Assembly: GCA_963666365.2 (NCBI GenBank) | Contig: CAXXNF010000002.1 | Coordinates: 704,001-768,000 of the forward strand | DNA from: Syntrophales bacterium | Lineage (GTDB): Bacteria; Desulfobacterota; Syntrophia; Syntrophales; UBA2210 | Reading direction: 5' to 3' | DNA: 64,000 nucleotides | Shown: positions 26,638 through 47,248 of the stretch, piece by piece | Layout: the number at the start of each line of letters is the position of its first letter | How positions within the stretch are numbered: the stretch's first letter is position 1 | Notes under the pieces: generated by a model | What the model was told of the DNA's origin: nothing | Databases searched by the model: none | What the model saw: the letters and a program-made list of their open reading frames with translations, nothing else | Translations under genes and position numbers: made by a program

Positions 26638-29600
26638 TCAGTTCGGTTTTTTAATTCCCAATTTTTTCATCCTGAATGCCAATGTATTGGGATGTATGGC
26701 CAGCAATTCAGCGGCTCCCCCGGGTCCGTATATTTTCCCCCGTGTTTTTTCGAGTGCCCATTTAATATGGCGGCACTCGTTCTCTTTCAGGGTGACGGCG
26801 GAACGTTCATCCAGGGATGATATTTTATAATCCCTGTTTAAACAATAACGTACATTGACAGAGTCAGATGCGACATAGCGTTCAACAAAATTTTTAAGCT
26901 CTCTCACGTTGCCCGGCCAGGCATATTGAATAAGTTCCGTCATACCATCGGCTGAAATGCTTCGTGCCAGTTTTTCGGTTTTGAGGGCCTGAACATTTAA
27001 AAAATGGTTAATCAGCAGGGGGATGTCATCTCTGCGATCTCTCAGCGAGGGAATGAATATTGGGTATACATTAATTCTGTAGAATAAATCGGAGCGGAAC
27101 GCATTGCCTGCGATGCACTGTTCCAGATTTCTGTTTGTGGCGGTAATGAGCCGAAAATCCGATCGTATGGTTTCTTTTCCACCCACACGTTCAAATTCTT
27201 TTGTTTCGAGAACGCGAAGAAGCCGCACCTGCATGCCCAACGGGAGGTCGCCGATTTCATCCAAAAAGAGCGTACCTTCATGTGCCTTTTCGAAACGGCC
27301 TATGTGCCGCTGATCCGCACCGGTAAAGGATCCCTTCTCATGGCCGAAGAGTTCACTGTAAATCAATTCCTCTGAAAGGGCGCTGCAGTTAAGAGTGATA
27401 AAGGGTTTGTTCTTCCTGTGTGAGTGATTGACAATAGCCTTTGCAATTAATTCCTTGCCTACCCCCGTTTCACCTGAAATGAGGACAGTGGTATCGCTTT
27501 GTGCAATTTCTTCAACCTGCGACAGTACCTGCCTGATCTGGAGGCTTTTTCCGATGATGTTTTCAAAATGAGCCGGCGCATGCTGCTGACTTTGTTTTTC
27601 GTAGTGTGCTTTTATTTCTTTTATGTGGACCGACAATTCCTGGTGTTCCCTTTGCAGGACTTCATTATTAAGAAACAGTGCCGCATAGCTTGCCAGTGTT
27701 GAGAGCCTGTCCAATTGAGAAATGCTGAAGGCATTGCTCAATAGGCGATTATCATGATACAAGACCCCCATTATATTATTTTTTACAATAATGGGGACGC
27801 AGGCAGCGGATAGAATAGGCGTTCCATCGGGGTTTTCGAGGGTTTCCCCTATCCTCAAATCCTGTAACTTTCCCTCTCCGCAGGCCGCAACTTCTTCCAT
27901 TAACCTGAGAGAAGCAGCAAATTCCGGAAGATTAATCTGTTGATTCGTCAAATTTTTCGATGCCCGAAGGGTGAATAGTCTTGATTCGCTGGTTGGGTTA
28001 CATAAAAACAACCCTCCCCTTTCCGCCCCGGTTATCCGGTTAGCGCTTGAAATGATATGCTGAATTGCTTCCTTCGCAGTGCTCATCGAAGACAGATCTT
28101 TTATAATAGAAGCAAGTTTCTTCAATTGACCGTCATGCACAGTTGAGGTTTTGATAATAGGTTTTATGTCGTCCGGTATCAAGGATTCATTGAGTGAGGA
28201 GAGTATGCGGCTGATCGATTCGGCCGATTTTAGCGCCTGGCTTTGATTTCCTTTCTTCAGATAGGCCCTGGAAAGTTCAACCAGCGATTTTGCCAATTCA
28301 ATTGCGTGGCCTGAGATCTCTAGAAATTTAATTGACTGTTCTATTGTCGCAATGATTGCATCAGTGGATGCTCCCTCTTTTTTTGCGAGAAGGGCTTTGA
28401 ATCTGTAGGCGACGCCTTTCAGGAAGACATTTTCAGTGTTTACCATGTCTTCAATCTCTTTCCTGATCGAAATGTCCGGCAACGCGGGGAGGAGGCCCTC
28501 TTCGGCAGCCCAGCAAAGTTCCATGAGATAAGGCCACGGTCTTACCGACACATCTACCTGCCTGCTGAGCTTGCAGAATTGGCGAATATGGCGCAGGCAT
28601 CTATCATTTTCGCCTTTACGGTAAAAAGCGAATGCCAGCATCAACTCCCCCTGGATTGCAGTCCATTCCGGCTGTATTTTTCTTGCTTCCTTAACCGCGG
28701 GCACAAGATGCTGCAGTGCATCGTCGATATGCCCGATATCAAGCATAATCGCCCCTATGCATATACTTGAGTGGGCTGCAAGCCCGATGTCGCCTTTTTC
28801 CACACATTGTCGGCGGATAGAGTCAATCATTCCGATTCCCTGGGTGATTTGTCCCACTTGCCCGTAACATGTTCCAATGGTCATCGCGGCAAGCAGGGGA
28901 AATCTGCCGAGAGGAAATTTTTCCACATCGCTTAACGATTGTTCATAGTCATGCACCGCATCTTTGAACAATCCCTGCCAGTAGAGAAGAAATGTCTTGA
29001 AGTTGGATATGGAACGAATCGTTTTCTCGTCATCCAGTTCTTCAGCCACGGCACAGGCGTTTTCAAAATGGTTCAGGGCATTTTTATAGTGAGACTGCAG
29101 CCATCTGTTTTTTGATATATTCATATCGATCATTGCCTGATATTTGAGATCATTCAGATTTTTCGCTCTGAACATCGCATCATCCAAAATCGATAGTACT
29201 TTCTTTACGTCATGTCTCGCGGTGTTGAGCTTTCCGTATTCGATGGCTGCGTCACAGAAGATGCGATCGGCGTCTTCACCACATATGCCTGAAAGGTCGT
29301 CCAGTATTTTCACATAACACTTCAGCGCTTTTTCGATTCGGTATCCTGTCCTGTAATAATTCGCTGCTTTAATCAGCCACTTGTATTCATTAATATCGTT
29401 GATTTTATTTAAAAGATAGGGTGCGATTACCGCAGCTTTTGAAGAAGAATCCGGAAGCTCCCTTATGAGCATTTCAGCAATGAGCTGATGGTAGAGGACT
29501 TTCTCTTCCGCTCTCAAATTCATCTGAAACATGCGGAGTGTTTTTGTGTCGGGGAAAACGTATAATCCAATGCCTTCTCTTTGAAGGTAGCCCAGCGCTA

Positions 29601-29835
29601 TGGCCTTTTCGAAGGTGAGGAGAATTTGCGATGCCTTTTTTTTCGTGAGTTCCTGGACCCAGTCTATCGAAAAGGCGCCGTTAAAAAGCGAGGCTATCGT
29701 GAGAACGTGCCTGTCTTCATCAGTGACGTGGTCAAGGTTGATGCCGGTGTTGCCCATAATTACATGGTTCTGTTTCTCCCCGGGCAATGCGTCCCATGTC
29801 CAGGGAAAAATAAGACTGCACTCCTTTGAGTTCAC
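26638..29835 (-). CDS. sigma54-dependent enhancer-binding protein (TPR-like - GAF - AAA+ - HTH)
   Basis: GETGVGKE, GSFTGA, FLDEIG, WPGNVREL, C-terminal HTH; start uncertain. Confidence 0.93.
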   Translation of the reverse strand: MNSKECSLIFPWTWDALPGEKQNHVIMGNTGINLDHVTDEDRHVLTIASLFNGAFSIDWVQELTKKKASQILLTFEKAIALGYLQREGIGLYVFPDTKTLRMFQMNLRAEEKVLYHQLIAEMLIRELPDSSSKAAVIAPYLLNKINDINEYKWLIKAANYYRTGYRIEKALKCYVKILDDLSGICGEDADRIFCDAAIEYGKLNTARHDVKKVLSILDDAMFRAKNLNDLKYQAMIDMNISKNRWLQSHYKNALNHFENACAVAEELDDEKTIRSISNFKTFLLYWQGLFKDAVHDYEQSLSDVEKFPLGRFPLLAAMTIGTCYGQVGQITQGIGMIDSIRRQCVEKGDIGLAAHSSICIGAIMLDIGHIDDALQHLVPAVKEARKIQPEWTAIQGELMLAFAFYRKGENDRCLRHIRQFCKLSRQVDVSVRPWPYLMELCWAAEEGLLPALPDISIRKEIEDMVNTENVFLKGVAYRFKALLAKKEGASTDAIIATIEQSIKFLEISGHAIELAKSLVELSRAYLKKGNQSQALKSAESISRILSSLNESLIPDDIKPIIKTSTVHDGQLKKLASIIKDLSSMSTAKEAIQHIISSANRITGAERGGLFLCNPTSESRLFTLRASKNLTNQQINLPEFAASLRLMEEVAACGEGKLQDLRIGETLENPDGTPILSAACVPIIVKNNIMGVLYHDNRLLSNAFSISQLDRLSTLASYAALFLNNEVLQREHQELSVHIKEIKAHYEKQSQQHAPAHFENIIGKSLQIRQVLSQVEEIAQSDTTVLISGETGVGKELIAKAIVNHSHRKNKPFITLNCSALSEELIYSELFGHEKGSFTGADQRHIGRFEKAHEGTLFLDEIGDLPLGMQVRLLRVLETKEFERVGGKETIRSDFRLITATNRNLEQCIAGNAFRSDLFYRINVYPIFIPSLRDRRDDIPLLINHFLNVQALKTEKLARSISADGMTELIQYAWPGNVRELKNFVERYVASDSVNVRYCLNRDYKISSLDERSAVTLKENECRHIKWALEKTRGKIYGPGGAAELLAIHPNTLAFRMKKLGIKKPN

Positions 29836-30003: not shown

Positions 30004-30076
30004 TTGCAGATGTGAGGACAGGCCGCTGTGAAGCCCTGTGTGGCGATATTGCAAGGTATTGTATGATAGGTCTCAG

Positions 30077-30092
30077 GGGCATGAATTTTGCT
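30077..30092 (+). promoter_or_regulatory. sigma54 -24/-12 promoter of the GRE operon
   Basis: GGGCATGAATTTTGCT = GG-N10-GC; divergent from the bEBP gene. Confidence 0.75.
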
Positions 30093-30148
30093 CATTGACA
30101 GCAGCGGGTGTCCGAATGCAACTAAAATTACCAGTGAGGAGTGAGAAG

Positions 30149-32557: not shown

Positions 32558-32561
32558 GCTG

Positions 32562-33675: not shown

Positions 33676-35367
33676 TTATGGCGTGCTTCTTTTGAGTTCC
33701 TCTTCAAGAAGCACTCTTCTCAATACCTTGCCGGCGCCGCTCATGGGCAGGTCGTCTCTGAATTCTACAGTTTTGGGCACCTTGTAAGGCGAGATGCCCT
33801 GTTTTGCCCATGCTATTATTCCGTCGGCCGTGACGGTATCCTTGAACGGGGCTTTCGGTACGATAAAGGCCTTGATGACTTGCTGTCCGGCAGGCCGATG
33901 ACGGCAGCTCTGTCCACGGCTTCATGGCGGCAGAGAAAGAGTTCCACTTCTTCGGGGAATACACTGAACCCCGATGTATTTATCATTTCCTTCTCCCTGC
34001 CAAGAAAATAGAGGTAGCCTTCTTCATCGAATTTACCCATATCCCCTGTATAGACCCATCCGTCGATAAGCGAGTCGTTCGTTTCCTCCGGTTTGTTCCA
34101 GTAGCCTTTGAACACGGCAGGATGATTAAGCGCGATCTCGCCCATTTCTCCTACCAGAACTTCCCAGGTTCTGTCCTCGAACGATACCATTTTGATGCCG
34201 GCGCCGGGATTGGGAATGCCCTGCCAGCCTTGTCCGTACTTGTGCTTGTCAAGGAGGATGAAGGTAGCGAAGGTGTCGGTTTTGGAAGGACCGTAGGCGG
34301 TTTCCACCAGAATACATCCGCCGGTGTCATCCTTCCAACGCTTTGCAATTTTTTCGGTAATCTGAACCCCGAAGCTGGTGGTCAGGCAGAGCTTAAGGGT
34401 TGATATGTCATAATTCTTCCTGTCCGGATGATCCATTATGCCGATATTCATGGGAACAGTAGCCTGAAAATAGTTGATATTATAGCGTTCGAGTGCCTGC
34501 ATGGCAGCTACGGGATCGAACATGACCATGAGGACCTGTGTGCTTCCCAGTGCGATCTGCCTGTCCACGCTCGATAGCATGCCGGCAATATGAAAGGTCG
34601 GAAGAATCGAGAGGCAGGAGATCGAATACCCACGGTATCTGGCAAATTCAAAACCAGCCTTGATTATGGTTATCATGTTGGCTATTTTAAAAAGTTTCGC
34701 GCCGTGAGTGAGGATGGCGCCCTTGGGAAGACCGGTAGTACCGCCCGTATACTGAAACTGGACTATGTCGTCGAGATCAACGTCGATCTGCACGGGTTCC
34801 GCCGGGAACTGCGACATGATATCCATGAATTCGATGGGCCCCTCATGGGTCATTTAGGAAACTCCATCATGGGGATCAGATTCATGGTTGTTGTGTCCGG
34901 GAGAAAATCATGCATACTGGTGACAACAACCTTTCCCAGATTTCATTCCTTACCGGCGACCGCAGCAACGGGATACAGAAGATCGAGAGAGACAACCGCC
35001 TTTGCGCCTGAATCCTGGAGTTCATAGGCCAGTTCCCATTCTTTGAAGACAGGACTGCAGGGAACTATTACTCCGCCCATCTTGTTGATGCCGTAGTGGG
35101 CAATATGATACTGGGGCAACTGGGAAGAAAGAGTGCAATGCGATCAACTTTTTTCAATCCTGAATCGACAAGAAAACGGGCGAATCGTTCGGACATGTCG
35201 TTCAGTTCGCCGTAGGTGACCTTTCTGCCGTAAAAGATCAAAGCAGTCCTGTCAGGATACTCCTTTGCATTATCGCGTAAATATTCAAAAATGGGTTTTT
35301 TATCTTTTGTGTATAGAGTTTCCTTGGGAAGAAAGTCAGGCCAACTTTTCATCCATATCTTGTCCAT
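33676..35367 (-). pseudogene. Long-chain acyl-CoA ligase, multiply frameshifted
   Basis: Fragments in different frames: MDKIWMKSWP..., YTGGTTGLPKG, YTGD, GKVLRRVL. Confidence 0.88.
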
Positions 35368-35374
35368 ATGAGCC

Positions 35375-37850
35375 TCCTCTTCCAATTCCCTGACATTGCC
35401 GGGCCATTCAAAAAAAAGCAGTTTTTCCGTTTCCTGATGGTTGATATTCTCCAGTGGTTTGTTGAATTTCTGGGCATAGAGGGTAAGAAAATAGTGGACC
35501 AGGAATGGAATATCCTCTTTTCTTTCACTGAGGCTCGGCACATTGATGGGAAAAACGTTGAGCTGGTAGTACAGATCCTGGCGAAACCGGCCGATTTCGA
35601 CCTCCTTCGCAAGATCACGGTTGGTTGCTGCCAACAGGCGAAAGTCGGATCTCAACGTTTCGTGCCCTCCCACACGTTCGAACTCTCCGCTCTGAAGCAC
35701 CCGCAGCAGTCTGACCTGAGTCTCCATAGAAATATCGCCGATTTCATCGAGAAATATCGTTCCACCGTTAGCCAGCTCGAATCTTCCCATGTGCCGTGTC
35801 GTTGCACCCGTGAATGCGCCATTTTCATGGCCGAAGAGTTCGCTGGAGATAAGGCTTTCAGACAAGGCGCTGCAATGGACTCGTATGAAAGGTTTTCCGT
35901 TGCGGGGACTATGACGGTGAATCGATCGAGCCACCATTTCCTTGCCGACGCCGGTTTCTCCAAGAATCAAAACGGTGGCATCGGTCTCAGCCACCTGATC
36001 TCTCTGGCTGAATACCTTCATGATGGCCGGGCTTTTTCCTATAAAGTCTTTAAAATGAATTGTCTCGATATATTCCTTTTCGTAATATTGCTTTTCTATC
36101 GCCTGTTTTTCGTACAAGTCATTCAAGGCCTTCCAGGCGTCGGCATTATCTATTGCAATGGCAGCCTGTGCTGCAAAAATAATTCAGAATGTCCAGATCC
36201 GACTCTCTGAAGGCGCTGCAAAACAGCCTGTTGTCGTGGGATAACACGCCCACGGTTTTATTACGAATGGTCATGGGAACGCATATGCACGAACGAATTG
36301 AGTCGACGCCTGCGGAACCAGGTTCATTTCGAATATCCAATTCTCTGATTCGACCCTTGCCCGATTTTATTGTCTCATCAATCAGTCTCATTGACATCAC
36401 GAATCCCGGATTGCGGATGTCTTCTCCGGTAAGGTTTTTTGCGGCCCTTAGAACAATATTTTTCCTGGCATCGTTTTCCACAAGAAATATCGCACCCTGT
36501 TCCGTCCACGTAATTCTATTTATCGTCGAAATAACAGGTCGAGACAGATCCCTGTAATTGCGAATCGTAGTTAATTCCTGGCTTAATCGCAAAATTTCCT
36601 CGAGAAGATTTTTACCGTACCGAAGGTCCTTTACAAGGGTCGAATATCATCGGGCACCAGCGCATCATTGAACGAATAGAGACCCCGCGCTGCCGTTTCT
36701 ACCCACTCCATGGCCTTCTTCCGCTTGCCGAACAGAAGATATTCCCTGGCCAGTTCTACCTTTGATTTTGCCAGCTCTATCTGATGGCCGCAGCTTTCAA
36801 GATAGGAAACGGATCGTTTGAGAGCATGTATGACATGTGTGGTCTCTGCACCTTCCTTCCTTTGTTGCAGTGTGCTGTAGCGATAGGCAACGCCCTTCAT
36901 CAGCAAATTGCCGCTTTCAATGGAATAGTGAATATCCTCTTACAGGGACATACCATCAACATGGGAAAATGTTCCCTCCTCCATCGCCCAAAAGATTAAC
37001 ATCCACAGGGCGCTGAACTTGACCGTCATGCAGACCTTTCCACTGAGGTCGAAATATTTCTGCAGGGCTGAAAGCGCCCGCTTGTGATCATTGAGCAGAT
37101 GCGAGGCATAGCATAGCAATGCCAATCCTCCAAGATGCGTATAGGTGTTGCGGCTTTTTATTGAATCTTCCAGAGACTCTTCAATGTAATGCAGGGCTTC
37201 CCCGGGTCGGTGAAGCTCAAGAAGCAAATAGCCTATCTATGTTCCCGCCAGCCCTATAACGGAAAAATTGCCGATATTGCGGCCATGCTCCCGAATGGCA
37301 TGGAGCATACCCAGCGCCTGAGAATACAGTCCCGTATGGCCCACACAGACTCCTGCGGTTAAGGCGGCTGAAAGAGGCAGGCTGTCTTTGGGAGAGGTGT
37401 CTTTCACATCTGGGACGAGGGTCTCGTAATTCTGAACGACCTCTCGATAATGTCCCGACCAGTAATTGAAAAACATGCCGAAAATTGTTGCCGATCGTTG
37501 AATGGTAGGATCGTCTATTTCCCGGGCCAATGCCCACACTTGCTTGAAATGGTGCAGCGTCGGGCGGTAAAGGGAACGAAGCCACTCGCTTTTGCCCAGA
37601 TGCATCTCAAGAAAGCCCAAAGAGTTTTTTTGCCCACAAGCTTTTGCGCGGCCCATGGCCTCTCGTATGACTGAGATTACCCGAGTCGGGTCTGTGTTAT
37701 CGGCGGAAACTTTGGCATATTGGAGCGCCGCTTCAATAAAAAGCTGATCGGCTTCATGCCCTCGGATTATTTTGAGGTCATCAATCACCTTATCATAATA
37801 GAATGGTACTGGCTGACTTCTTCCTTGGATGCGATCTTCTTTTGACTCAT
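35375..37850 (-). pseudogene. Fragmented TPR-GAF-AAA+ sigma54 activator, paralog of 26638..29835; HTH deleted
   Basis: Five ORF fragments collinear with the intact paralog (KGVAYR, GHQIELAKS, LRAAKNLT, HDNRL, GAFTGA, WPGNVRELE). Confidence 0.88.
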
Positions 37851-38195: not shown

Positions 38196-39752
38196 TTAAA
38201 ACTTAGTGGGCCAGTTGGCGAGTTTATGTTCGCTTATTCCCCTTGTTTTGGAGAAGTCCTGCGATTGTTGCAGCACCCTTATGATATGGTTCCGTGTATC
38301 ACGGGGATCGATTATATCATGGATAAAGTGCAGGCCGGCGGCGCCGTAAGGGTCAGTTCCCTCGGCCATCTTTGCTACCCGCTCCTCCTGTTCCTCCGGT
38401 GTCTTCGCCGGCGTGCCCCCGAAGACCACGTTTGCCGCAATTACCGGATCGACGAAGCTCATTTCCGCCGTAGGCCATGCGACAATTGAATCGGCGCCGC
38501 TGCCGGAGCCGCACATGTTCCAAAACGCCATGCCGTAGGCCTTTCTCACAATTACGGTAATCTTGGGTACCGTCAGAAGTCCCAGGGCGTTCATGAAATT
38601 CATGACGTGGGCACCTACCCGCTTACGCTCCGCCTCTCTTCCTACAAGAAATCCCGGAATGTCTTCCATGAAGACAAGGGGAATGTTGAAGGAATCACAC
38701 AGGCAGAGAAAACTCATGACTTTTTCGATGCCGTCCGTATCCATGGCGCCTGAGTTAAACCGGGGCTGATTCGCCACGATGCCGATCACCCTGCCGTCGA
38801 TGCGGGCAAGCGTGGTGATGACCGTCTGCCCGAAGAGGGGCTTGATAGGAAAGAGGCTGTTCGTGTCGACAATGCACTTCAAAAGCTGGTTCATGTCGTA
38901 GGTGCGGTTTCTTTTTTCCGGCAGCAAATCCAGAATGTGGGGCATGTTGGTACCGGAGTCTTCCGGCACGGGCGCCCTGGGGGGGAGTTCCTCGTTATGC
39001 GCGGGCATATAACTTAGATAATCACGAATAATTTGCATGCACTCGTCTTCGCTTTCGGCCGCGCGATCGGCCATGCCCGTCACCCGGGAATGCAGCTGCC
39101 AGCCCCCCAGTTCCTCGTCGGTGATGTTCTCACCCAGGGCGATTGAAAGAATGCGGGGACCAGATACACCCATAGCAGTACCTTTTACCATGACGACAAA
39201 ATCCGAAAGACAGGCCATCCAGGTCGGTTCACCGTAACATTTGCCCAGCACAGCCGTAACCAGCGGCGTTTCACGAACCCGGCTCATCATCTGAAGAAAG
39301 GTAGTGCGACCGCCGCCGCCGTAGGAGGCGAGTCCCCCCGATCCCATGATATCGGGCATCCGTGCCCCGCCTGCCTCGCCAAGGTAGATAACAGGAAATC
39401 CGTGTCGAATTGCTGTTTCTCTCACATCGTGTTCTTTTCGTCCGGCAATGCGGCTCGACGTTGCGCCCAGGACGGTAAAGTCTGCGGCAAGTACGGCGAC
39501 GGGCCGGCCGTTAATCATTCCATAGCCGCCGACTTTGCTGTCGGCAGGGCTCTTATCTTCCATTCCCGGCATGTCTGAGTGATTCAACATGCCGACTTCA
39601 GCAAATGAACCATCATCGACAAGTCTATCGATGCGCTCACGAGCGGTGTATTTACCCTCAGCATGCTGTTTGGCAATCTTTTTTTCCCCGCCCATCATAA
39701 GGGCCTTTTTCTTACGGCGGCTCAATTCCTCCATCTGCTGTTCAAAGGGCAT
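38196..39752 (-). CDS. Acyl-CoA carboxyltransferase (PccB/MmdA-type)
   Basis: TARERI, DFTVLG, GGARM, DIPGFLVG, RKAYG, DIIDPRDTR. Confidence 0.92.
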   Translation of the reverse strand: MPFEQQMEELSRRKKKALMMGGEKKIAKQHAEGKYTARERIDRLVDDGSFAEVGMLNHSDMPGMEDKSPADSKVGGYGMINGRPVAVLAADFTVLGATSSRIAGRKEHDVRETAIRHGFPVIYLGEAGGARMPDIMGSGGLASYGGGGRTTFLQMMSRVRETPLVTAVLGKCYGEPTWMACLSDFVVMVKGTAMGVSGPRILSIALGENITDEELGGWQLHSRVTGMADRAAESEDECMQIIRDYLSYMPAHNEELPPRAPVPEDSGTNMPHILDLLPEKRNRTYDMNQLLKCIVDTNSLFPIKPLFGQTVITTLARIDGRVIGIVANQPRFNSGAMDTDGIEKVMSFLCLCDSFNIPLVFMEDIPGFLVGREAERKRVGAHVMNFMNALGLLTVPKITVIVRKAYGMAFWNMCGSGSGADSIVAWPTAEMSFVDPVIAANVVFGGTPAKTPEEQEERVAKMAEGTDPYGAAGLHFIHDIIDPRDTRNHIIRVLQQSQDFSKTRGISEHKLANWPTKF

Positions 39753-39896
39753 GGTAGAAGCTTCCTCCTTCTTTGGTGTAGTGTAGGTAATGATACAAAA
39801 ATAATTATGGGGAAAATCCCCATTGTGCGATATCAAAGTATGAGGGTACACTTTCCATAGATCAGGTCCCCACCGGGGTCAATTGGGTGGTGTGTC

Positions 39897-41240
39897 CTAT
39901 CCCAGGATTCCGATAAAGACGCCGCCTGCGATGGCGGCGCCGATGGCGCCGGCCACGTTGGGTCCCATGGCGTGCATCAGGAGGAAGTTCTGCTTGTTTT
40001 CCTTCTGTCCCATCACCTGAACGACCCGTGCCGACATGGGGACGGCAGAGACGCCCGCCCCGCCGATCATGGGATTGATTTTCTCTTTCAGGAAGAGATT
40101 CATGATCTTTGCCAGAATCACGCCGGCGGCGGCGGCGCTGGCAAAGGAAACCACGCCGAGAACCAGTATGAGGAGCGTGTCCACCCGAAGGAAGTTTTCC
40201 GCCGACATGGTGCCGCCGATGGCAAGGGTCAGAAAGATGGTCAGCATGTCGATGAACACCGTCTGCGCCGTCTTGCTGAGCCGTTCAACCACCCCGCTCT
40301 CGCGAAAGAGATTGCCCACCATGAAACAGCCGATCAGGGGCGCCGAGTCGGGCACGAAGAGGATCACCACGATGGCGGTCACGATGGGGAAGAGGATCTT
40401 TTCCAGCTTCGACACCTTGCGAAGCTGGGGTTTCATGTAAATGGACCGCTCCTTCTTGGTCGTCAAAAGTTTGATAACCGGGGGAAGGATCAGCGGCACC
40501 AGGGCCATGTAGGAATAGCAGGCCACGGCGGTGGCGCCGATAATATGGGGCGCGAGCCGGGCCGTCACATAGATCGTGGTGGGGCCCTCGGCCCCGCCGA
40601 TTATGCCGATGGAACTTGCCTCAGGAAGGGTGAACCCACAGAAAATTGCCAGAAAAAAGGCGAAATACACGCCGAACTGCGCCGCCGCACCCAGGAGCAG
40701 CGTCTTGGGATTGGCCAGCATGGGGCCGAAATCGGTCAGCGCCCCCAGACAGAGAAATATCAGCGGGGGAAGAATCTGCCACATGATGCCGAAGGCGAAA
40801 AAGCGAGAAAGAAGCCCCACGGGCCGGGTGGGAATCTTCTCCTGATCCGTCTGCTGTGTCGTCACGATGACCGCCACCACATCGCCCGCATCGACTCTCT
40901 GGTTCTCCGTCACCCTGAACTTCGCGACCCGCCCGTAGACGGGGGAAGTGATCTCCCCGGCATCGGTCGCGACAATGGCCGCGCCGCACTCGAAGCTGTC
41001 CCCCCGCTCCACGGAGAGCCGGCTGACCATTCCCGGACTCGGGGCCCTGAGCGTGTATTCGTAGTCCATGAGCCCCCCCATGGGAAGATTGACCAGCATG
41101 ATGCCGAAGCCGATGGGCAGCAGCAGAAGGGGCTCCATCTTTTTGCCGATGGCAAGATATATGAGGACGCAGCCGATGATGATCATCAGGACGTTGCCCC
41201 AGGTAATATACTGAAAACCGCTTTCTAATAAACCGAACAC
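39897..41240 (-). CDS. Ion-translocating decarboxylase beta subunit (OadB/MmdB/GcdB family) with inserted biotinyl-like domain
   Basis: EPLLLLPIGFG, GALTDFGP, GIIGGAEGPT, YSYMALVP, GVSAVPMSAR, HAMGPNVAG. Confidence 0.95.
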   Translation of the reverse strand: MFGLLESGFQYITWGNVLMIIIGCVLIYLAIGKKMEPLLLLPIGFGIMLVNLPMGGLMDYEYTLRAPSPGMVSRLSVERGDSFECGAAIVATDAGEITSPVYGRVAKFRVTENQRVDAGDVVAVIVTTQQTDQEKIPTRPVGLLSRFFAFGIMWQILPPLIFLCLGALTDFGPMLANPKTLLLGAAAQFGVYFAFFLAIFCGFTLPEASSIGIIGGAEGPTTIYVTARLAPHIIGATAVACYSYMALVPLILPPVIKLLTTKKERSIYMKPQLRKVSKLEKILFPIVTAIVVILFVPDSAPLIGCFMVGNLFRESGVVERLSKTAQTVFIDMLTIFLTLAIGGTMSAENFLRVDTLLILVLGVVSFASAAAAGVILAKIMNLFLKEKINPMIGGAGVSAVPMSARVVQVMGQKENKQNFLLMHAMGPNVAGAIGAAIAGGVFIGILG

Positions 41241-41263
41241 GTGTGTACCTCCCGGAATCCGCG

Positions 41264-41401
41264 TTACTCGCTTCTCGATTTTGATATCTTTTCAGTGACG
41301 ACCTTTGTCACCCATACCGTAAATGACAAGAGGATGAGGAGAATAAATACCAGGCCGAAACCGCCGACGGCTATCTTGAGCGCCAATCCCATATCCACCA
41401 T
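41264..41401 (-). CDS. OadG/MmdD-like small membrane subunit (45 aa; absent from the ORF track)
   Basis: MVDMGLALKIAVGGFGLVFILLILLSFTVWVTKVVTEKISKSRSE; AAGGA RBS; directly upstream of the beta subunit. Confidence 0.8.
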   Translation of the reverse strand: MVDMGLALKIAVGGFGLVFILLILLSFTVWVTKVVTEKISKSRSE

Positions 41402-41660
41402 TATTTTAGTATCCTTTCCCGGGGAACTCACAATATGGAAGCACCTGAATTAGTGTTGTCCCGATACATCTCGATGGGGGTTCCGGCACCTAATTCCTGG
41501 TGGTTTCATATGCATTTAAAAAATAATTGTCCTTATGGTACGTGCCAAATAGCGAAAACAGAAATTATCTCTATAATTCAATATGATATGACTATACAAT
41601 TTGTCTCGCACGAGAATGATAAAACGACAATTTATGAACACACTATATTTCGTGATATTC

Positions 41661-43184
41661 TCAATATTTCCCTCCGTGATCGATTTTGACCTGCGCTCTG
41701 TCTGTTTCTCCCTCAGTCGTTCGGGGAAGTCTCTCTACAAACAGAACATATTTCGGTTTTTTGTAGCGGGCGATTTTTGTCGTTACATAATCGATCAATT
41801 CCTGAGGACTCAAATCGGCGCCGGCTTTGGGTACGCACACTGCCTTTATCGCTTCCCCCCAGGTCTCGTCGGGAACACCAATGACACAGACATCTTCGAT
41901 GCCGTCATGGCTGAGAATCGCCTTTTCAACTTCTGCAGGGTACACGTTTTCTCCGCCCGGTTTGATCAGCTCTTTTTGCGCCTTGCGCTTGACATACCAG
42001 AGATATCCCTCTTCATCAAAACGGCCTATGTCTCCCGTATGGTGCCATCCGTTTCTGAAGGTATAGGCCGTTGCCTCTTCCATGTTCCAATATCCCTGAA
42101 ATACTGAAGGTGACTGTACGCAGATTTCACCAGGTTCTCCCAGGGGTACTTCGTTGTCATAGTCGTCGAAAAGTGAAACCCGGGCAAGAAGTGCGGGCTT
42201 TCCGGCGCTGCCCGGCCTGTCAGCGGCATTGCCACCCGTTACCGGAATTGCCTCGGTCTGCGCGTAGCCGCTGTAAAATACCGCATGCGGCGCGAGTGTG
42301 AGGATGGTGCGCACGCTCTCCGGATCCTCAAGGCCGCCGATACTTCGAAGACTGGAAAGATCACAGGGTGTTTCTTTATGGGCATCGATGAGCATTTTCA
42401 ATATGGGTGCAAATGATCCGAAGGTGGTCACTCTTTCGGCTTCAATGAGTTTCAGGGCCAGAGCGGGGTCGAAACGATCGACGATGACGTTTTTCGCTCC
42501 CCCATGAAGAATTGCCATAGAGGTTGAAAGCGCGGCGATGTGAAAGAGGGGAAGGATGCAAAGGTGACACGCATCTTCGCCCATGCGCTCCTGCGCGAGA
42601 ATCTGCATGTTGGTGGCGATTACATTCCCCTGACTCAGGAGGGCGCCTCGGGGCGTCCCTTCAACGGCCGCAGTATGGATAATTACATATCCCGCTTCGG
42701 CGGGAATGTCATATGTCGTGTCGGCGCCTTTTTTTCTGTAAAGCGTTTCAAAGGGTTGAAAGGAGGGAAGATCCGATTGTGCTGACATCGCATACCACAT
42801 TTCTATTGATGCGACGTTTTCCGCTGCTTCGGCGGCTGCGTTCAGATACTCCGATCCCGCAAAAAGGGCCTTGGGTGTGCAGTCCTTCAGGATATGGGAG
42901 ATTTCGTTACACTGAAAGCGCCAGTTTACGGGAACGACTATTGCGCCTATCTTTGCCGCGGCCCCGTAGAGAATCATGAAGTAATCCGAATTGTGAGCGA
43001 CTACGGCAATTCGATCCCCCAGTTGAATTCCCTGCTCGACAAGCCCCGCAGCACAGTGATCACATTTCATCTTGTAATCGCGGAACGTCATGCGCAGGTC
43101 TCCATAGACCAGTGCATCCCGATCTGCATGAAGCACGGCATTTCTGGATATCACGTCGTAAACAGTAAAGTCGCGAAGTCCCAT
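41661..43184 (-). CDS. AMP-binding acyl-CoA ligase
   Basis: HTAAVEGTPRG (variant P-loop), GYAQTE, HTGDIG, GGENVYPAEVE. Confidence 0.92.
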   Translation of the reverse strand: MGLRDFTVYDVISRNAVLHADRDALVYGDLRMTFRDYKMKCDHCAAGLVEQGIQLGDRIAVVAHNSDYFMILYGAAAKIGAIVVPVNWRFQCNEISHILKDCTPKALFAGSEYLNAAAEAAENVASIEMWYAMSAQSDLPSFQPFETLYRKKGADTTYDIPAEAGYVIIHTAAVEGTPRGALLSQGNVIATNMQILAQERMGEDACHLCILPLFHIAALSTSMAILHGGAKNVIVDRFDPALALKLIEAERVTTFGSFAPILKMLIDAHKETPCDLSSLRSIGGLEDPESVRTILTLAPHAVFYSGYAQTEAIPVTGGNAADRPGSAGKPALLARVSLFDDYDNEVPLGEPGEICVQSPSVFQGYWNMEEATAYTFRNGWHHTGDIGRFDEEGYLWYVKRKAQKELIKPGGENVYPAEVEKAILSHDGIEDVCVIGVPDETWGEAIKAVCVPKAGADLSPQELIDYVTTKIARYKKPKYVLFVERLPRTTEGETDRAQVKIDHGGKY

Positions 43185-43329: not shown

Positions 43330-43968
43330 GTGAACAGATACGCGCAAGCGAAGGCGATGCGAGAACACTTTCTTAAAAAATATTATGATCTGCTGGAATG
43401 GATACTGCGCCCGTTGATAGGCAGATCAATTTCAGCAAATGCTGTTTCGTGCCTTTCGGTCATGTTCTCCTTTATCGCATTTTTCATATATGCGAAAGGA
43501 CTCTTTTTAGCAGGCGGGATAGTGCTTCTCCTATCGGGGTTCGTCGACACGCTGGATGGAACCATTGCCCGTCTTTCCGGCACCTCCTCCAAATTCGGTG
43601 CGCTGCTCGATTCCAGTTTGGACCGTTGGTCCGACTTTTTTATCTACGCAGGATTGCTTATATACTACCGCCAGAGCCCGGTCATCTATGCGGTACTCCT
43701 CTGTATAATCGGCTCCTTCATGGTGAGTTATGTAAAGGCGAGGGCCGAATCACTCGGAAGAGTCCGCGTCGTAGGTTTCATGCAGAGGCCTGAGCGCGTG
43801 GTGTTGCTTGCAGTGGCCTCGTTCAGTGTACCCGTTATGTCATGCTTTGCGCCTTCCAATAGAGAGGCGATGCTGATAGTCGTGCTCTACCTTATGGCGA
43901 TTCTTACCAATATCACATTTTTGCACAGGCTCTTCGCAGCGAAAAAAGACTTGGGCCAAGAAAAGTGA
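43330..43968 (+). CDS. CDP-alcohol phosphatidyltransferase
   Basis: DTLDGTIAR...GALLDSSLD signature; SYVKARAE. Confidence 0.92.
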   Translation: MNRYAQAKAMREHFLKKYYDLLEWILRPLIGRSISANAVSCLSVMFSFIAFFIYAKGLFLAGGIVLLLSGFVDTLDGTIARLSGTSSKFGALLDSSLDRWSDFFIYAGLLIYYRQSPVIYAVLLCIIGSFMVSYVKARAESLGRVRVVGFMQRPERVVLLAVASFSVPVMSCFAPSNREAMLIVVLYLMAILTNITFLHRLFAAKKDLGQEK

Positions 43969-44029
43969 ATTCCGGGTGTTGCTGCAGGCTGCTGCCAATG
44001 AGGACGATTCCATTCTCTTGGAGGAAAGG

Positions 44030-44069
44030 AAGGCGAGGGAATCCTGACTCATAGAGATTCCCTCGCTTC
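44030..44069. terminator. Hairpin between convergent genes
   Basis: GCGAGGGAATC ... GATTCCCTCGC stem. Confidence 0.6.
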
Positions 44070-44073
44070 TAAG

Positions 44074-45309
44074 TTATTTCCAGCTGTATTTCGTTAAATC
44101 GGGACAGGGATATTCGCCGATAACATTCTGACGATTATCGTTCAGTCTGATCAGAACTGCCGTATCCTGCCCGAATCGTTTCTTTTCGTTAAATGTTACA
44201 GGCGGTCGAAGGCCCATCATGTCATAACCTTTGATCGTTTGTATAGCATCATAGACAGCTTTGCCATCAACATTGCCAGGTCCTACTTTATGCGCCGCTA
44301 TACGTATTGCCTCGCAGGCGATAAGGGCCATCCCCGCGGTCATTGCATGTCCTTCTGGTGGAAATCCCATTTTATCACGCCCATTTTTCTTAAATATTTC
44401 CAGAACCTTCGGGCATCGATTCGGCCACTCAGCTACAGGCCAGATATTGGAAACTATATAGGTGTTTCTCGCCAGAGGGCCGACCATATCTAAAAGGACG
44501 CCCGGCACTATGGCATAGCAAAGACCGATATCTATCTGGTCGATCATGCCTAATTTTTCCATTTCCTTAAGTACGACCGCAAAGGCATTTTGATACATGC
44601 CGCCAAAGGTGAAATCAACACCCTTTTCCTTCAATCTCAATAATTGAGCACTCACATCGGTAGGTACATAGGGAATAAACTCTTCACCGATTATTTCTAC
44701 ACCCTTCGATTCAATGTAGGCCCTTGCTTTAGGTGTTATGGATGCACGGCCATAGGCGACTTCCCATGTGAGCCAGGCAAAGCGCGGTTTTCTGTTAAGT
44801 CCTTTTTTTGGCCAGATATTTGCGAGATACCAATCGACCCATAATCCCAATTCATTCACGTAGGGGGATGTCGGTGAAAATGTCCATGAAGGAAGTTTTG
44901 TCAGTTCATCATCGCTGCCCCCCTCAACATTGATTATTTCTTTTTTGATATTCCATTTTTTCAGCGCCAGAGCAACGCCGGTGGACTGGCCTACCATAGC
45001 GACCACTTTGTCCTTTCCCTCGGACATTTGTTTGAAAGCGGTCATTGATTTTGCTGCATCGGATCCTCCATCTTTCCAGATGGGAACAATTTCGACTCCA
45101 TTCAGGTCCATGTACTTGTTTGCAAGTTCGACACCATCGAGAAATCCCGGGTTATTGGCAACCTGTGTTCCACCATAGGGTCCGGTTATATGAACCAGAT
45201 GGCCGAGATAGACCTTTGTCTTGTCGGCTTGGGCCATACCCGTGATACCTGCAATAAGGAACAAAGAGAAAAAAGTAAAAAACATTTTATTCAATACCCA
45301 TTTATTCAT
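44074..45309 (-). CDS. Liv-type ABC substrate-binding protein
   Basis: Signal peptide; ITGPYG; last gene of the Liv-type operon. Confidence 0.85.
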   Translation of the reverse strand: MNKWVLNKMFFTFFSLFLIAGITGMAQADKTKVYLGHLVHITGPYGGTQVANNPGFLDGVELANKYMDLNGVEIVPIWKDGGSDAAKSMTAFKQMSEGKDKVVAMVGQSTGVALALKKWNIKKEIINVEGGSDDELTKLPSWTFSPTSPYVNELGLWVDWYLANIWPKKGLNRKPRFAWLTWEVAYGRASITPKARAYIESKGVEIIGEEFIPYVPTDVSAQLLRLKEKGVDFTFGGMYQNAFAVVLKEMEKLGMIDQIDIGLCYAIVPGVLLDMVGPLARNTYIVSNIWPVAEWPNRCPKVLEIFKKNGRDKMGFPPEGHAMTAGMALIACEAIRIAAHKVGPGNVDGKAVYDAIQTIKGYDMMGLRPPVTFNEKKRFGQDTAVLIRLNDNRQNVIGEYPCPDLTKYSWK

Positions 45310-45366
45310 GATTCCCTCCTTTTGTTGCGGATTTATTTTAGGCTTGTTCCAGATAATTCAGAAAGT

Positions 45367-46161
45367 CTAGCCAAGCCACCTCTTGCGCCTTTTATAATGC
45401 TTCACGTCGCGATAGCTCTTCTTTTTTCCCACACCGGACAATCCGAGATAAAATTCGCGCACATCTTCGTTCTCTTTGATTTTATCGGCAGGTCCGTCAA
45501 GGACGATGCGCCCGTTTTCCATGACATAGGCATAATCAGATACGGTAAGTGCGATATTGGCATTCTGTTCTACCAGTAGAATGGGAAGCTTCTCCTCCTG
45601 ATTGATTGTTTTGACTATCTGAAAGATCTCTTTCACGATTAAAGGGGCCAGCCCCAAAGATGGCTCGTCAAGCATGATTAATCGAGGACGCGCCATAAGA
45701 CTCCGGCCTATCACGAGCATCTGCTGCTCCCCGCCGGAAAGATATCCGCTCACTGCCTTCTTTAAATCAAAAAGGCGGGGAAAGTACTCATATACCTGGC
45801 GTAACCTTTTCTTTACATCCTGCCTGCTTCTATTCAGATACGCACCCAGAAGAAGATTTTCTTCAACATTCAGATGCGCATACAGACGCCTTCCCTCAAT
45901 TACCTGCCTTATACCGTAAGAGGCAATTTCTTCTGGACCCAGTTTCTCGATCCGGTGTCCGGTATAATCGATGCTTCCATGGGTGACTTCACCCAGTTCA
46001 ACGCCTAATATCCCCGATATTGCTTTGAGCGTGGTGCTTTTCCCGGCGCCGTTTGCCCCGAGGAGGGAAACAATCTGACCTTCTTTTACGGAGAGACTTA
46101 CTCCCCGCAGGACGAGAATCACTTTCGAATAGACGACTTCAATATTATTAACTTCCAGCAT
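45367..46161 (-). CDS. Liv-type ABC ATP-binding protein (LivF-like)
   Basis: GANGAGKST, LSGGEQQM, DEPSLGLAP. Confidence 0.93.
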   Translation of the reverse strand: MLEVNNIEVVYSKVILVLRGVSLSVKEGQIVSLLGANGAGKSTTLKAISGILGVELGEVTHGSIDYTGHRIEKLGPEEIASYGIRQVIEGRRLYAHLNVEENLLLGAYLNRSRQDVKKRLRQVYEYFPRLFDLKKAVSGYLSGGEQQMLVIGRSLMARPRLIMLDEPSLGLAPLIVKEIFQIVKTINQEEKLPILLVEQNANIALTVSDYAYVMENGRIVLDGPADKIKENEDVREFYLGLSGVGKKKSYRDVKHYKRRKRWLG

Positions 46162-46190
46162 GGTATCCCTCCCGACGAATTCTTTTTACC

Positions 46191-47246
46191 TCAGTATGGA
46201 AACGGCCACAGGCGGAATGTCGAAAGTGTTATCTGCCATCGATGAAACAGCCCTCGCGGCTCAAATACAAGAAAGAGAAGAATTACGGCGCCAAAAAAAA
46301 TCTGAACAAATCCAGCGACAGCCGATCCTTCAAGGGCCGGAAAAACACTGCCGAGCCAAGGAGCAAGGAAGAGAACAAGCTGGTGGAGTAACTTGAGAAA
46401 GAATACCCCCATAATTGCGCCTGTGATTGTGGCTCCTCCAATAATAAGCATTCCCAACATCCAGATGGAATCCATAAGCGTGAATTGCTCGACGGTAATT
46501 ATTCCCTGGTAATGGGCAAGCAGTGATCCTGCTATACCGGCATACAAGGACGATAGAAAAAAGGCGAGCACTTTGGTTTTAAATACATTAATTCCCATAA
46601 ATGCTGCTGCCAGATCATTGTCCCTAACGGCTATAAAGGATCGCCCTGTCTTTGTTCTCATCATATTGTTCGTGAGAAACACAATGACAACGACAAAAGT
46701 CATTGCAAGATAATAAAATCTGAGTTCACTGTCGAAGACAAAACCGAAGAAAGAGACTTCTTCGGCGGGCAGACCCGATATCCCCTGAGTTATATTGCCT
46801 CCGTGAAGGATAATCCACATGATGATGAAGTGAGCTGCCAGTGTGGTCACGGCAATGTAAAATCCCCTGATTTTCAGCGCCGGCATTGCGACGATTATGC
46901 CAAGAATTCCACTTCCCAAAGCTGCGCATGGAAGAGTGAGCCAGAAAGGCAATCCGACGTGAGTGGAAAGTGCTGCGCTCACATAGGCGCCCACAGCCAT
47001 GAAGGCAGCATGCCCCATGCTTATCTGTCCGGTAAATCCAACAATAATCTGCAGCCCCAGAACGGCAATAACAAATATTCCCATATTTATCGCGACATCA
47101 AGAAGATAATTACCTGCGATCAGCGGAAACAGGCCGAAGAGGAAAACAAGAAGCAGTATCAGCATAATCCAGCGAAATCCGGTTCGTACCAGAGCGCTAT
47201 CCTGCTCATATGTTTCATCAAATGTTCCGCAGGGTTTTTTCAGCAT
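46191..47246 (-). CDS. Liv-type ABC permease (LivM-like)
   Basis: GFTGQISMGHAAF, GRSFIAVRDN. Confidence 0.92.
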   Translation of the reverse strand: MLKKPCGTFDETYEQDSALVRTGFRWIMLILLLVFLFGLFPLIAGNYLLDVAINMGIFVIAVLGLQIIVGFTGQISMGHAAFMAVGAYVSAALSTHVGLPFWLTLPCAALGSGILGIIVAMPALKIRGFYIAVTTLAAHFIIMWIILHGGNITQGISGLPAEEVSFFGFVFDSELRFYYLAMTFVVVIVFLTNNMMRTKTGRSFIAVRDNDLAAAFMGINVFKTKVLAFFLSSLYAGIAGSLLAHYQGIITVEQFTLMDSIWMLGMLIIGGATITGAIMGVFFLKLLHQLVLFLAPWLGSVFPALEGSAVAGFVQIFFGAVILLFLVFEPRGLFHRWQITLSTFRLWPFPY

Positions 47247-47248
47247 TT

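Follow-up and report, generated by a model that had tools for sequence, protein, structure and literature searches.

The window analysed here is a stretch of 64,000 nucleotides from a Syntrophales bacterium of the family UBA2210, and on its minus strand lies a gene for the beta subunit of a biotin-dependent decarboxylase, accompanied by an anchor ORF, a carboxyltransferase and an acyl-CoA ligase. The features are as follows.

38196..39851, minus strand: carboxyltransferase (alpha-type), 551 aa, 46 bases downstream of the beta gene (PF01039, 357 bits)
39897..41240, minus strand: beta subunit gene (membrane, carboxybiotin decarboxylase/ion-translocating), 447 aa, Glu type (ORF, PF03977, TIGR01109, PDB 6iva)
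40587..40589, minus strand: codon GAG of Glu218 at the H1 hairpin tip, counterpart of Klebsiella/Salmonella OadB Asp203 (translation, alignment, AlphaFold2 model)
40821..41069, minus strand: 84-aa insert with a biotin-carrier fold, residues 58-140, between T2 and T3 (PF00364, AlphaFold2, Foldseek)
39892..41402: 1511-bp unit of anchor ORF and beta gene, present in two copies, the second at G000:C2:2426460-2427970 (99.93% identical, 1 mismatch)
41264..41431, minus strand: OAD_gamma-like anchor ORF, 55 aa, single helix (weak PF04277 match)
41661..43184, minus strand: AMP-forming acyl-CoA ligase upstream of the beta gene (PF00501, PF13193)

The 447-aa beta protein exceeded the curated cut-offs of both PF03977 OAD_beta (501 bits, E 2.1e-150, cut-off 31.6) and TIGR01109 (487 bits, cut-off 190.6), and Salmonella OadB (PDB 6iva) matched it with an E-value of 3.9e-111. 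Its AlphaFold2 model (mean pLDDT 94.8, pTM 0.90) had the OAD_beta fold, that is, TM helices and two re-entrant helical hairpins in the core domain as in 6IWW, and the best Foldseek match was 6iww_A (E 1.3e-27, TM 0.77/0.82, 44% identity), followed by CitS, NapA and NHA2. The protein is homologous to Salmonella OadB (6iva/6iww) across the whole membrane part, and the tips of its two predicted hairpins carry the carboxylate and Ser382.

The textbook residue for ion and proton handling in decarboxylase sodium pumps is Asp203. The minus-strand reading of 40581-40640 was ATC GGC ATA ATC GGC GGG GCC GAG GGC CCC ACC (IGIIGGAEGPT), just as the preliminary description had read the GAG codon, and the motifs that it had listed as retained, YSYM (Tyr229), GVSAVPM (Ser382) and GPNVAG (Asn412), were all recovered in the alignment to OadB. 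The HMMER alignment to 6iva/6iww placed Glu218 on Asp203 of Salmonella OadB, and in the AlphaFold2 model residues 215-218 formed the non-helical tip of hairpin H1, between helices 205-214 and 219-229. The aspartate that the characterised Klebsiella/Salmonella class demands at the H1 tip is absent, and Glu218 stands in its place.

The insert between T2 and T3 scored 24.1 bits with PF00364, was all-beta and confident in the AlphaFold2 model, and resembled the Pyrococcus horikoshii BCCP 5gua in Foldseek (rmsd 0.8 over 69 columns). It has the carrier fold without the modifiable MKM lysine at the hairpin, and the position of the biotinyl-lysine is Ala in this protein and variable across the clade. 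Between T2 and T3' Salmonella OadB has a helical "domain E", whereas the Glu-type protein has this beta-barrel domain. An 86-aa beta-rich insert was found at the same site in the Asp-type protein P0121, while Asp-type proteins of the same family have a 4-residue loop where the Glu type has the insert. From the placement of KK33-34 and of Asn55, which is described as "in T2, in the periplasmic face" (PMC7274780 Supplementary file), the insert is predicted to lie on the outer (periplasmic) face, where it would be out of reach of the cytoplasmic biotin ligase that a true carrier domain needs.

Gene neighbourhood and second copy

The beta ORFs of the two copies were identical over all 1344 bases, and divergence began directly past the stop codon. 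A Logan contig spanned exactly 39897..41402 with a depth of 7.7, compared with about 3 for the flanking contigs. When the whole genome (94% complete) was searched with PF03977, the only beta genes were these two identical Glu-type copies. The anchor ORF scored 23.1 bits with PF04277 (E 4e-4), which is under the 27-bit cut-off; it stood upstream of both beta copies and, by tblastn, upstream of beta in loci L010-L013 too. The order ligase-anchor-beta was common to L012, the ligase of which was 72% identical.

The partners of the two copies differ. The 551-aa carboxyltransferase in the window was not GcdA-like; it scored 408 bits with TIGR01117 mmdA, below the cut-off of 998.8, and its best PDB matches were propionyl-CoA carboxylase beta (1vrg) and 12S transcarboxylase. 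At copy 2, the beta gene was followed by an acyl-CoA dehydrogenase with 618 bits to PDB 3mpi ("Glutaryl-CoA dehydrogenase"), which we take to be the Desulfococcus multivorans non-decarboxylating enzyme, and judged by this match the dehydrogenase is a glutaryl-CoA dehydrogenase of the non-decarboxylating type. The carboxyltransferase of copy 2 matched GcdA (3gf3, 735 bits; 1pix, 712 bits), and a 70-aa EAMKM biotin carrier lay about 3.3 kb further on. So of the GcdABCD set, the GcdA-type carboxyltransferase and the MKM carrier were present at copy 2, and the anchor was a weak match only.

This arrangement is like GcdABCD of Acidaminococcus fermentans and Clostridium symbiosum in that the beta gene stands beside a GcdA orthologue and a free-standing biotin carrier, and the same reaction chemistry would be expected. 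It is unlike GcdABCD in that the anchor has only 55 aa and the operon holds the putative non-decarboxylating-type glutaryl-CoA dehydrogenase. Clostridial GcdB has Asp at the H1-tip position, and to our knowledge it has no insert; its size is given as about 35-39 kDa in a passage of PMC7145394. The partner of Salmonella OadB is OadA, whereas that of the Glu-type protein would be an acyl-CoA carboxyltransferase, with the small carrier as a protein of its own.

Distribution and origin of the glutamate form

Glutamate stood in the aligned column in all 120 of the closest database homologues, and a motif search for GGAEGP found 119 of these 120. Of 36 loci from the genomes of other species, 29 had it too, encoded by GAG in 21 and by GAA in 8. 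An origin of the GAG in a sequencing or assembly error, or in a decaying pseudogene copy, would have some basis in an assembly of 2 contigs with frame-broken genes at the nearby 33.8-37.8 kb, which indicate that local errors or decay exist. Against it stand these homologues and the 29 independent genomes that use both codons, the identical second gene copy, the unbroken frame of 447 codons with its confident model, and an independent Logan contig with 0 differences, so that we consider its probability negligible. Logan contigs from three studies covered codon 40587-40589 (X1, the one with 0 differences, X3 and X4), and among the differences listed there was no alternative letter at the codon, which is weak support, these being assembled contigs and not raw reads. 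Thus the glutamate at the Asp203 position is confirmed as real, and the sequencing error that the preliminary description had named as one way to dismiss it is refuted. The other way, that Glu is common in functionally normal homologues, failed too: Asp was found in 132 of 150 family representatives and Glu in one fragment only.

A tree of 117 rows, built without the D/E column, placed its 25 Glu rows on one branch with an SH-aLRT of 100, and in a repeat tree with 15 Glu rows they again formed one branch. Closest to the Glu clade was the Chloroflexota-type Asp group, with SH-aLRT values of 95 and 97 in the two trees. Pairwise comparison of 21 Glu-type genes left 92 of the 210 pairs with dS below saturation, and in these dN/dS had a median of 0.067 and reached at most 0.16. 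The proposal of a new subfamily was therefore borne out by a single clade under purifying selection (dN/dS about 0.07), which was the pattern to be looked for according to the preliminary description. Members of the clade come from Syntrophales and Dehalococcoidia MAGs, and all of the named sources are MAGs. On these alignments and trees, Glu is supported as a conserved hallmark of an entire natural sub-family that arose once.

A DNA-pattern census with GGNGGNGCNGARGGNCCNAC was also tried on 301 genomes of the class, but while 39 matched, the reversed control pattern matched about thirty times, and only the count for the own family (21 of 35) was clearly over the noise. Protein searches took the place of this census.

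The Glu type alone was found in 24 of 38 same-family genomes and a short type of 61-67% identity alone in 8; none had both and 6 had neither. The short type was an Asp type in all 7 examined, and the eighth, G212, was outside the sample. The two types were both found within the genera g2, g3 and g5. Of the 81 genomes from a Dehalococcoidia order, 4 had the Glu type, each with a single beta gene. Thus the Glu type replaces the Asp type one for one in related genomes, and co-occurrence was never seen. The same-family Asp-type proteins (L046-L052) fill the same place in their genomes, each being encoded by the sole beta gene, and so do the Asp-type proteins of Chloroflexota MAGs (P0121, P0123, L037, L039 and L042), which are 51-57% identical to the Glu type.

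Residues of the ion pocket

Residues were counted in aligned rows, 122 of the Glu type and 131 of the Asp type, with positions numbered as in OadB. The residues found essential or important by mutagenesis (Tyr229, Asn373, Gly377, Arg389, Glu40 and Arg304) were all present in this protein, as were Ser382 at the tip of H2 (here Ser398) and Asn412 of the second site (here Asn428). Across the 122 Glu-type rows, Tyr229, Arg304 and Asn412 were kept in 122, and Glu40, Asn373, Gly377, Ser382 and Arg389 in 121. Supporting residues of the characterised class, namely Ser419, Gln237, Thr354 and Asn311, were not kept, and the clade-specific changes in this protein are these.

39936..39938, minus strand: Ala435 at the Ser419 position, T10, beside the H1 tip
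40485..40487, minus strand: Leu252 at the Gln237 position, T5
40131..40133, minus strand: Ala370 at the Thr354 position, T9, protein interior
40248..40262, minus strand: Thr327 and Asp331 at the Asn311 and Asn315 positions, T8, lining of the cytoplasmic cavity

Ala occupied position 419 in 121 of the 122 Glu-type rows, while the 131 Asp-type rows had Ser in 81, Thr in 19 and Ala in 5. Position 237 was Leu (117) or Ile (4) in the Glu type, where 121 of the 131 Asp-type rows had Gln, and position 354 was Ala in 121 compared with Thr in 97. At the cavity lining, the Glu type had Thr at 311 (119 rows) and Asp at 315 (121 rows), where the Asp type had Asn in 85 and 82 rows, respectively. Further changes in the Glu clade were A226C (T5) and A423G (T10). 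Unlike the Glu type, the Asp-type proteins of both the same family and Chloroflexota were canonical at Asp203, Ala226, Gln237, Gly322, Thr354 and Ser/Thr419, and the 7 Asp-type genes examined in the same family were canonical at all sites of the package, with no intermediates. This pattern suggests that the pocket was rebuilt as a package around Glu in this clade, but all changes of the package fall on one stem branch, so their co-occurrence counts as one event and is no statistical proof of compensation.

The changed sites are known from the characterised enzymes. Gln237 of StOadB forms a hydrogen bond with Ser378 of hairpin H2, and Asn311 is among the essential residues in Salmonella (PMC7274780). 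In KpOAD, S419A retained 10%, Q237A 15% and T354A 8% of the activity (PMC7274780 Supplementary file 1B).

Proposed function and coupling ion

We infer that the Glu-type protein is a working ion-translocating decarboxylase beta subunit, in which Glu is tolerated through the rebuilt pocket and Na+ is the most likely ion; taking activity, compensation and ion together, we give this reading about an even chance. A working pump is argued for by its being the only beta subunit in the genome, by its place beside GcdA and glutaryl-CoA dehydrogenase, and by its replacement of the Asp form in relatives. In the proposed mechanism, the subunit would serve glutaconyl-CoA decarboxylase and a second carboxyltransferase in this genome, with a separate small carrier bringing the carboxybiotin. 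Decarboxylation would take place at the cytoplasmic cavity, as in OadB, GcdB and MmdB, and the energy released would power an elevator-type shift of the core domain, by which the bound cation crosses the membrane. The ion-binding carboxylate at the H1 tip would be Glu instead of Asp, made tolerable by a one-step rebuild of the pocket (S419A and A423G in T10, T354A in T9, Q237L and A226C in T5, N311T and N315D in T8), while the second tip Ser382, Asn412 of the second site and the residues of the catalytic face are as in OadB. The coupling ion would most likely be Na+, probably with a changed affinity, and in its favour both hairpin-tip ligands are retained, save for the length of the carboxylate.

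However, the sole experiments at position 203 go against a working pump. In KpOAD, D203N and D203E had 0% activity and pumping was lost (PMC7274780 Supplementary file 1B, citing Di Berardino & Dimroth 1996), so the preliminary description was right in recalling that even conservative mutants of Asp203 are inactive, and D203A abolishes Na+ binding (PMC7274780). S419A and T354A of the Glu clade are also substitutions that were tested in KpOAD, and Q237L is at a site tested as Q237A, with 8-15% left. The loss of both decarboxylation and pumping in the D203E and D203N mutants could mean that the Glu-type protein no longer pumps and is an uncoupled carboxybiotin decarboxylase or a mere membrane scaffold of the carboxyltransferase, and 6 of 10 annotated loci (L015, L016, L019, L022, L024 and L034) likewise have the Glu-type gene beside housekeeping genes without an adjoining carboxyltransferase. 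But the whole protein, both hairpin tips included, is under very strong purifying selection, and a scaffold would have no need of invariant Ser382, Asn412, Gly377 and Tyr229. The gene is the sole beta and has GcdA and a glutaryl-CoA dehydrogenase of the putative non-decarboxylating type as neighbours, in a pathway that needs the decarboxylation, and it is a one-for-one stand-in for the Asp-type genes of sister genomes. We therefore regard the loss of pumping, which the preliminary description had raised as an uncoupled or non-catalytic subunit, as improbable. Three features that the preliminary description had passed over are the other pocket changes that accompany Glu, the 84-aa carrier-like insert and the second copy of the gene.

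D203E is dead in the laboratory, yet a widespread natural lineage keeps Glu under strong selection as its only copy, and this lineage offers a ready-made set of candidate compensating substitutions for dissecting how decarboxylation is coupled to ion transport. In the literature searched we found no description of a natural Glu variant, no enzyme of the Glu clade that had been characterised and no assayed Syntrophales enzyme, though such work may exist elsewhere in print. Annotation pipelines label the Glu-type proteins "sodium ion-translocating" from homology alone.

The lineage raises the question of whether the decarboxylation of glutaconyl-CoA or methylmalonyl-CoA is coupled to H+ and not Na+ in some syntrophs and Dehalococcoidia, and the choice of ion matters for how organisms at the thermodynamic limit balance their energy. 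The pocket is without the polar groups of Ser419, Gln237 and Thr354, and it has Thr for Asn311; in other ion-coupled rotors and transporters, fewer polar ligands tend toward selectivity for H+ over Na+. The Glu clade could accordingly pump with a changed ion or stoichiometry, that is, with H+, with either Na+ or H+, or with one ion and not two, a longer carboxylate of higher pKa lying in a less polar pocket, and this might suit a near-equilibrium or reverse glutaconyl-CoA decarboxylase in syntrophs. In nearly all of the 122 rows, Glu218 goes with the apolar residues at 419, 237 and 354, with N311T and with the new Asp331, all of these positions matter for activity in the Klebsiella or Salmonella enzyme (PMC7274780), and Na+ and H+ compete for the cavity (Xu et al., PMC7274780). 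The Syntrophus aciditrophicus enzyme is termed "proton-translocating" in a passage of PMC4992975 that does not itself give the data. On this evidence a change of ion, as the preliminary description had suggested, or of stoichiometry is possible, though we think it somewhat unlikely. In its specific form, the Glu clade would be the first branch of the biotin-dependent decarboxylase pumps to be coupled to protons (or to be Na+/H+-promiscuous), with D203E together with S419A, Q237L, T354A and N311T switching the selectivity, which we put forward as a speculative and rather unlikely proposal. If it were true, Syntrophales and Dehalococcoidia would feed the energy of decarboxylation straight to the proton motive force, with an enzyme reversible near equilibrium.

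Several findings speak against a changed ion. Ser382 and Asn412 are invariant, and their alanine mutants have Na+ binding abolished or weakened (PMC7274780). Contigs sharing between a quarter and nearly half of the words sampled from the window came from marine sediment metagenome runs. And the Glu and Asp types swap within genera while the main F-type c-subunit motif is constant: the best-scoring c subunit had the same GIGN...AESIAIY-type motif in Glu-type, Asp-type and beta-less genomes (1-6 c-subunit genes each), and its equality in Glu-type and Asp-type genomes is a weak point for Na+.

The beta-subunit gene and its glutamate

The gene and an insert within it were placed in the window as follows.

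39897..41240, minus strand: beta-subunit ORF, 447 codons, with PF03977 and TIGR01109 profile matches
40821-41069, minus strand: carrier-fold insert, 84 aa, residues 58-140, between transmembrane helices T2 and T3, assigned by fold match

Both profile scores were well over the cut-offs (OAD_beta PF03977, 501 bits; TIGR01109, 487 bits). Sequence and fold alike put the protein in the OadB/GcdB/MmdB homology family, and its sole solved relative is Salmonella OadB (6iva/6iww, E 3.9e-111). Minus-strand translation of 40581-40640 gave IGIIGGAEGPT with the Glu codon GAG at 40589-40587, so the preliminary description had read GGAEGPT correctly and had placed its GAG correctly at 40587-40589. In the alignment to Salmonella OadB this Glu218 stood opposite Asp203, and YSYM (Tyr229), GVSAVPM (Ser382) and GPNVAG (Asn412) were retained, as had also been described. 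The AlphaFold2 model rested on 103 aligned sequences, was confident (pLDDT 94.8, pTM 0.90) and had 6iww_A as top structural match (E 1.3e-27, TM 0.77/0.82). In it, residues 215-218 are non-helical, lie between helices 205-214 and 219-229 and make up the tip of the re-entrant hairpin H1.

OadB has a helical "domain E" where the window protein has the carrier-fold insert. In fold the insert resembled a biotin carboxyl carrier domain (rmsd 0.8 to 5gua across 69 columns), and it had no conserved lysine at the biotinyl position. Because it follows the periplasmic end of T2, the insert is predicted to lie outside the cell, on the outer face; the published structure paper puts Asn55 of T2 "in the periplasmic face" (PMC7274780). 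One relative with Asp at position 203 (Asp-type; P0121) carried a comparable insert, which means that insert and Glu do not strictly go together.

Conservation, rarity and spread of the Glu form

Glu occupied the aligned column in 120/120 database homologues (74-98% identical, best 120 of 8000 scored), and GGAEGP itself turned up in 119 of these by plain motif search. A scan with one genome per species gave 36 loci, of which 29 encoded Glu, 6 Asp and one was a fragment without the motif. The Glu codon was GAG in 21 and GAA in 8 of the 29 Glu loci; the codon thus varied synonymously while Glu stayed, which shows selection for Glu. From 21 Glu-type genes (210 pairs), 118 pairs with saturated synonymous sites were left out, and the remaining 92 had a median dN/dS of 0.067 (maximum 0.16). 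A sequencing error, considered in the preliminary description, is contradicted by the 120 homologues and by the use of both codons in the 29 loci. Assembled contigs from three studies covered the Glu218 codon and showed no difference there among those listed, a weak support because these were contigs and only part of the difference table was listed. That the codon is an artefact is therefore hardly conceivable.

Nor was Glu common in normal homologues, the other objection raised earlier, since Asp was present in 132 of the best 150 family representatives (of 5887, clustered at 50% identity). The only Glu among these 150 was in P0247, a 312-aa fragment with other motifs disturbed; the rest were a few divergent proteins with Asn, Ala, His or Ser, and fragments or misaligned sequences. 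The Asp203 position had no carboxylate in P0174 (Asn), P0179 (Ala), P0192 and P0210 (both His), and P0216 and P0229 (both Ser). These six depart more radically from the canonical form than the Glu clade does and are candidate non-pumping paralogues.

A first tree was built with the D/E column removed from 117 near-full-length rows (25 Glu, all 84 Asp and 8 others), after every fifth of 121 Glu rows was taken and 58/271 rows with coverage below 90% were dropped. The Glu rows formed a single branch (SH-aLRT 100, stem 0.31 changes per column), so GGAEGPT does define a clade, and the median dN/dS places it under purifying selection, as had been proposed for checking. They were again a single branch in a second tree of 50 rows, in which Dehalococcoidia sequences fell at two places within the clade and its nearest Asp-type neighbours were Chloroflexota-labelled MAG sequences, not the Asp type of the source genome's own family. 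By record titles, the clade came from Syntrophales, Syntrophaceae and "Deltaproteobacteria" MAGs and from Dehalococcoidia MAGs. No description of a natural Glu variant of such beta subunits was found in the literature searched.

Among 38 own-family genomes, 24 had only the Glu type, 8 only a short type (61-67% identical), none had both and 6 had no match. The Glu type was confirmed by a DNA pattern in 22/24 genomes, the other two being outside that sample. Of the 8 short-type genes, seven were retrieved, and every one of these was Asp-type. The two types alternated among species of single genera (three genera), never together. In a Dehalococcoidia order, 56/81 genomes had a beta gene, and the four known to be Glu-type had one each. 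The alternation, the grouping of the Glu clade with Chloroflexota-labelled Asp-type sequences and the two separate placements of Dehalococcoidia sequences look like lateral transfer, in either direction, that may have displaced the resident gene.

Two cassette copies and their neighbours

The source genome (4.0 Mb, 2 contigs, 94% complete) had only two PF03977 genes, both Glu-type, in a repeated unit.

39892-41402 of the window, and 2426460-2427970 of the source-genome contig G000:C2 (locus L003, about 9460-10970): repeated unit of anchor ORF and beta gene, 1511 bp, 99.93% identity

The unit also held a single-helix ORF of 55 aa that matched OAD_gamma weakly. The beta ORFs of both copies were identical over 1344 bases and similarity stopped at the stop codon, and these twin cassettes suggest a recent duplication or gene conversion. 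The copies adjoin different carboxyltransferases. The window copy is preceded by an acyl-CoA ligase; 46 bases downstream of this copy comes a carboxyltransferase of 551 aa that belongs to the propionyl-CoA carboxylase beta / MmdA type. Downstream of the second copy lies an acyl-CoA dehydrogenase with a 618-bit match to PDB 3mpi, the non-decarboxylating glutaryl-CoA dehydrogenase of Desulfococcus, and after it a GcdA orthologue of 589 aa (3gf3, 735 bits), with a 70-aa biotin carrier containing EAMKM nearby.

In other genomes, Glu-type neighbours were MmdA-like carboxyltransferases, GcdA or unrelated housekeeping genes. One genome (G047) carried a diverged pair of Glu-type genes, with 74% and 76% identity to the window query. 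In many genomes (loci L015, L016, L019, L022, L024 and L034) the beta gene stood by itself among unrelated genes such as recA/recX, TetR and efflux genes, clpB or carB, without an adjacent carboxyltransferase, so its partners must lie elsewhere.

Elsewhere in the window, 26638-33464 held a glycyl-radical enzyme (839 aa, PFL-like and Gly_radical) and a radical-SAM activase beside a 1065-aa sigma-54 activator (26638..29835). A paralogue of this activator lay in pieces at 33816-37797 on the minus strand (frames -3, -2, -3), and missed ~173 residues at its start and ~84 at its end; ORF 35068..36126 joined it to the N-terminal ~60 residues of an AMP-ligase, the rest of which was a separate ORF (33816..34853). 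Either decay or assembly indel errors would account for this. Upstream of the decarboxylase genes, 43330-50957 held a gene for a CDP-alcohol phosphatidyltransferase and an ABC transporter cluster of the branched-chain-amino-acid type that included a second long AMP-ligase (666 aa).

Pocket changes and the coupling ion

The window protein lacks Asp203, the most familiar functional hallmark of the family, and also departs from it at four supporting pocket positions (Ser419, Gln237, Thr354 and Asn311), and is therefore not classed as a canonical Na+ pump. Nine positions were compared between 122 Glu-type and 131 Asp-type rows.

Residues at nine positions (OadB numbering) in Glu-type and Asp-type rows
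S419: Glu-type, Ala 121/122; Asp-type, Ser 81, Thr 19, Ala 5 of 131
Q237: Glu-type, Leu 117, Ile 4 of 122; Asp-type, Gln 121/131
T354: Glu-type, Ala 121/122; Asp-type, Thr 97/131
N311: Glu-type, Thr 119/122; Asp-type, Asn 85/131
N315: Glu-type, Asp 121/122; Asp-type, Asn 82, Asp 22 of 131
A226: Glu-type, Cys 121/122; Asp-type, Ala 125/131
G143: Glu-type, Cys 117/122; Asp-type, Gly 103/131
G322: Glu-type, Thr 121/122; Asp-type, Gly 106/131
A423: Glu-type, Gly 121/122; Asp-type, Ala 84/131

No Asp-type row had more than 4/9 clade states, and the seven own-family Asp-type genes were canonical at all nine sites. Glu40, Tyr229, Arg304, Asn373, Gly377, Ser382, Arg389 and Asn412 were unchanged in 121-122 of the 122 Glu-type rows. 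As all the changes fall on the single stem branch, they represent one historical event and no statistical proof of co-evolution.

Several clade states occur where, according to Xu et al. 2020 (PMC7274780), single substitutions harm the Klebsiella or Salmonella enzymes. D203A and S382A abolished Na+ binding, and D203N/E of Klebsiella oxaloacetate decarboxylase had 0% activity and lost pumping (Supplementary file 1B), which bears out the earlier statement that even conservative mutants lose activity. S419A kept 10% activity (Ser419 hydrogen-bonds the carbonyl of Gly201 in the tip of H1), Q237A 15% (Gln237 hydrogen-bonds Ser378 in hairpin H2) and T354A 8%, and Asn311 was counted among the essential residues. 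The changed positions with known mutant damage lay in or beside the ion-holding core domain.

The Glu type replaces the Asp type one for one, has sole-copy status and is strongly selected, all of which points to a working subunit, and a protein that does not pump seems improbable. The glutaryl-CoA dehydrogenase/GcdA pathway at the second copy needs a separate glutaconyl-CoA decarboxylase, for which the 94%-complete genome offered no beta subunit other than the Glu-type protein. The main F-type c subunit had an identical ion-site motif whether the genome was Glu-type or Asp-type, which fits either coupling ion. We give about even odds to a functional, Na+-coupled protein: Ser382 and Asn412 are retained, and close relatives freely exchange the Glu type with Asp-type genes, both of which favour a Na+ cycle that has not changed. 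A functional protein with altered coupling is less likely but possible: the carboxylate is longer and polar side chains are lost at 419, 237 and 354, changes of a kind that elsewhere shifts selectivity towards H+ and might do so here.
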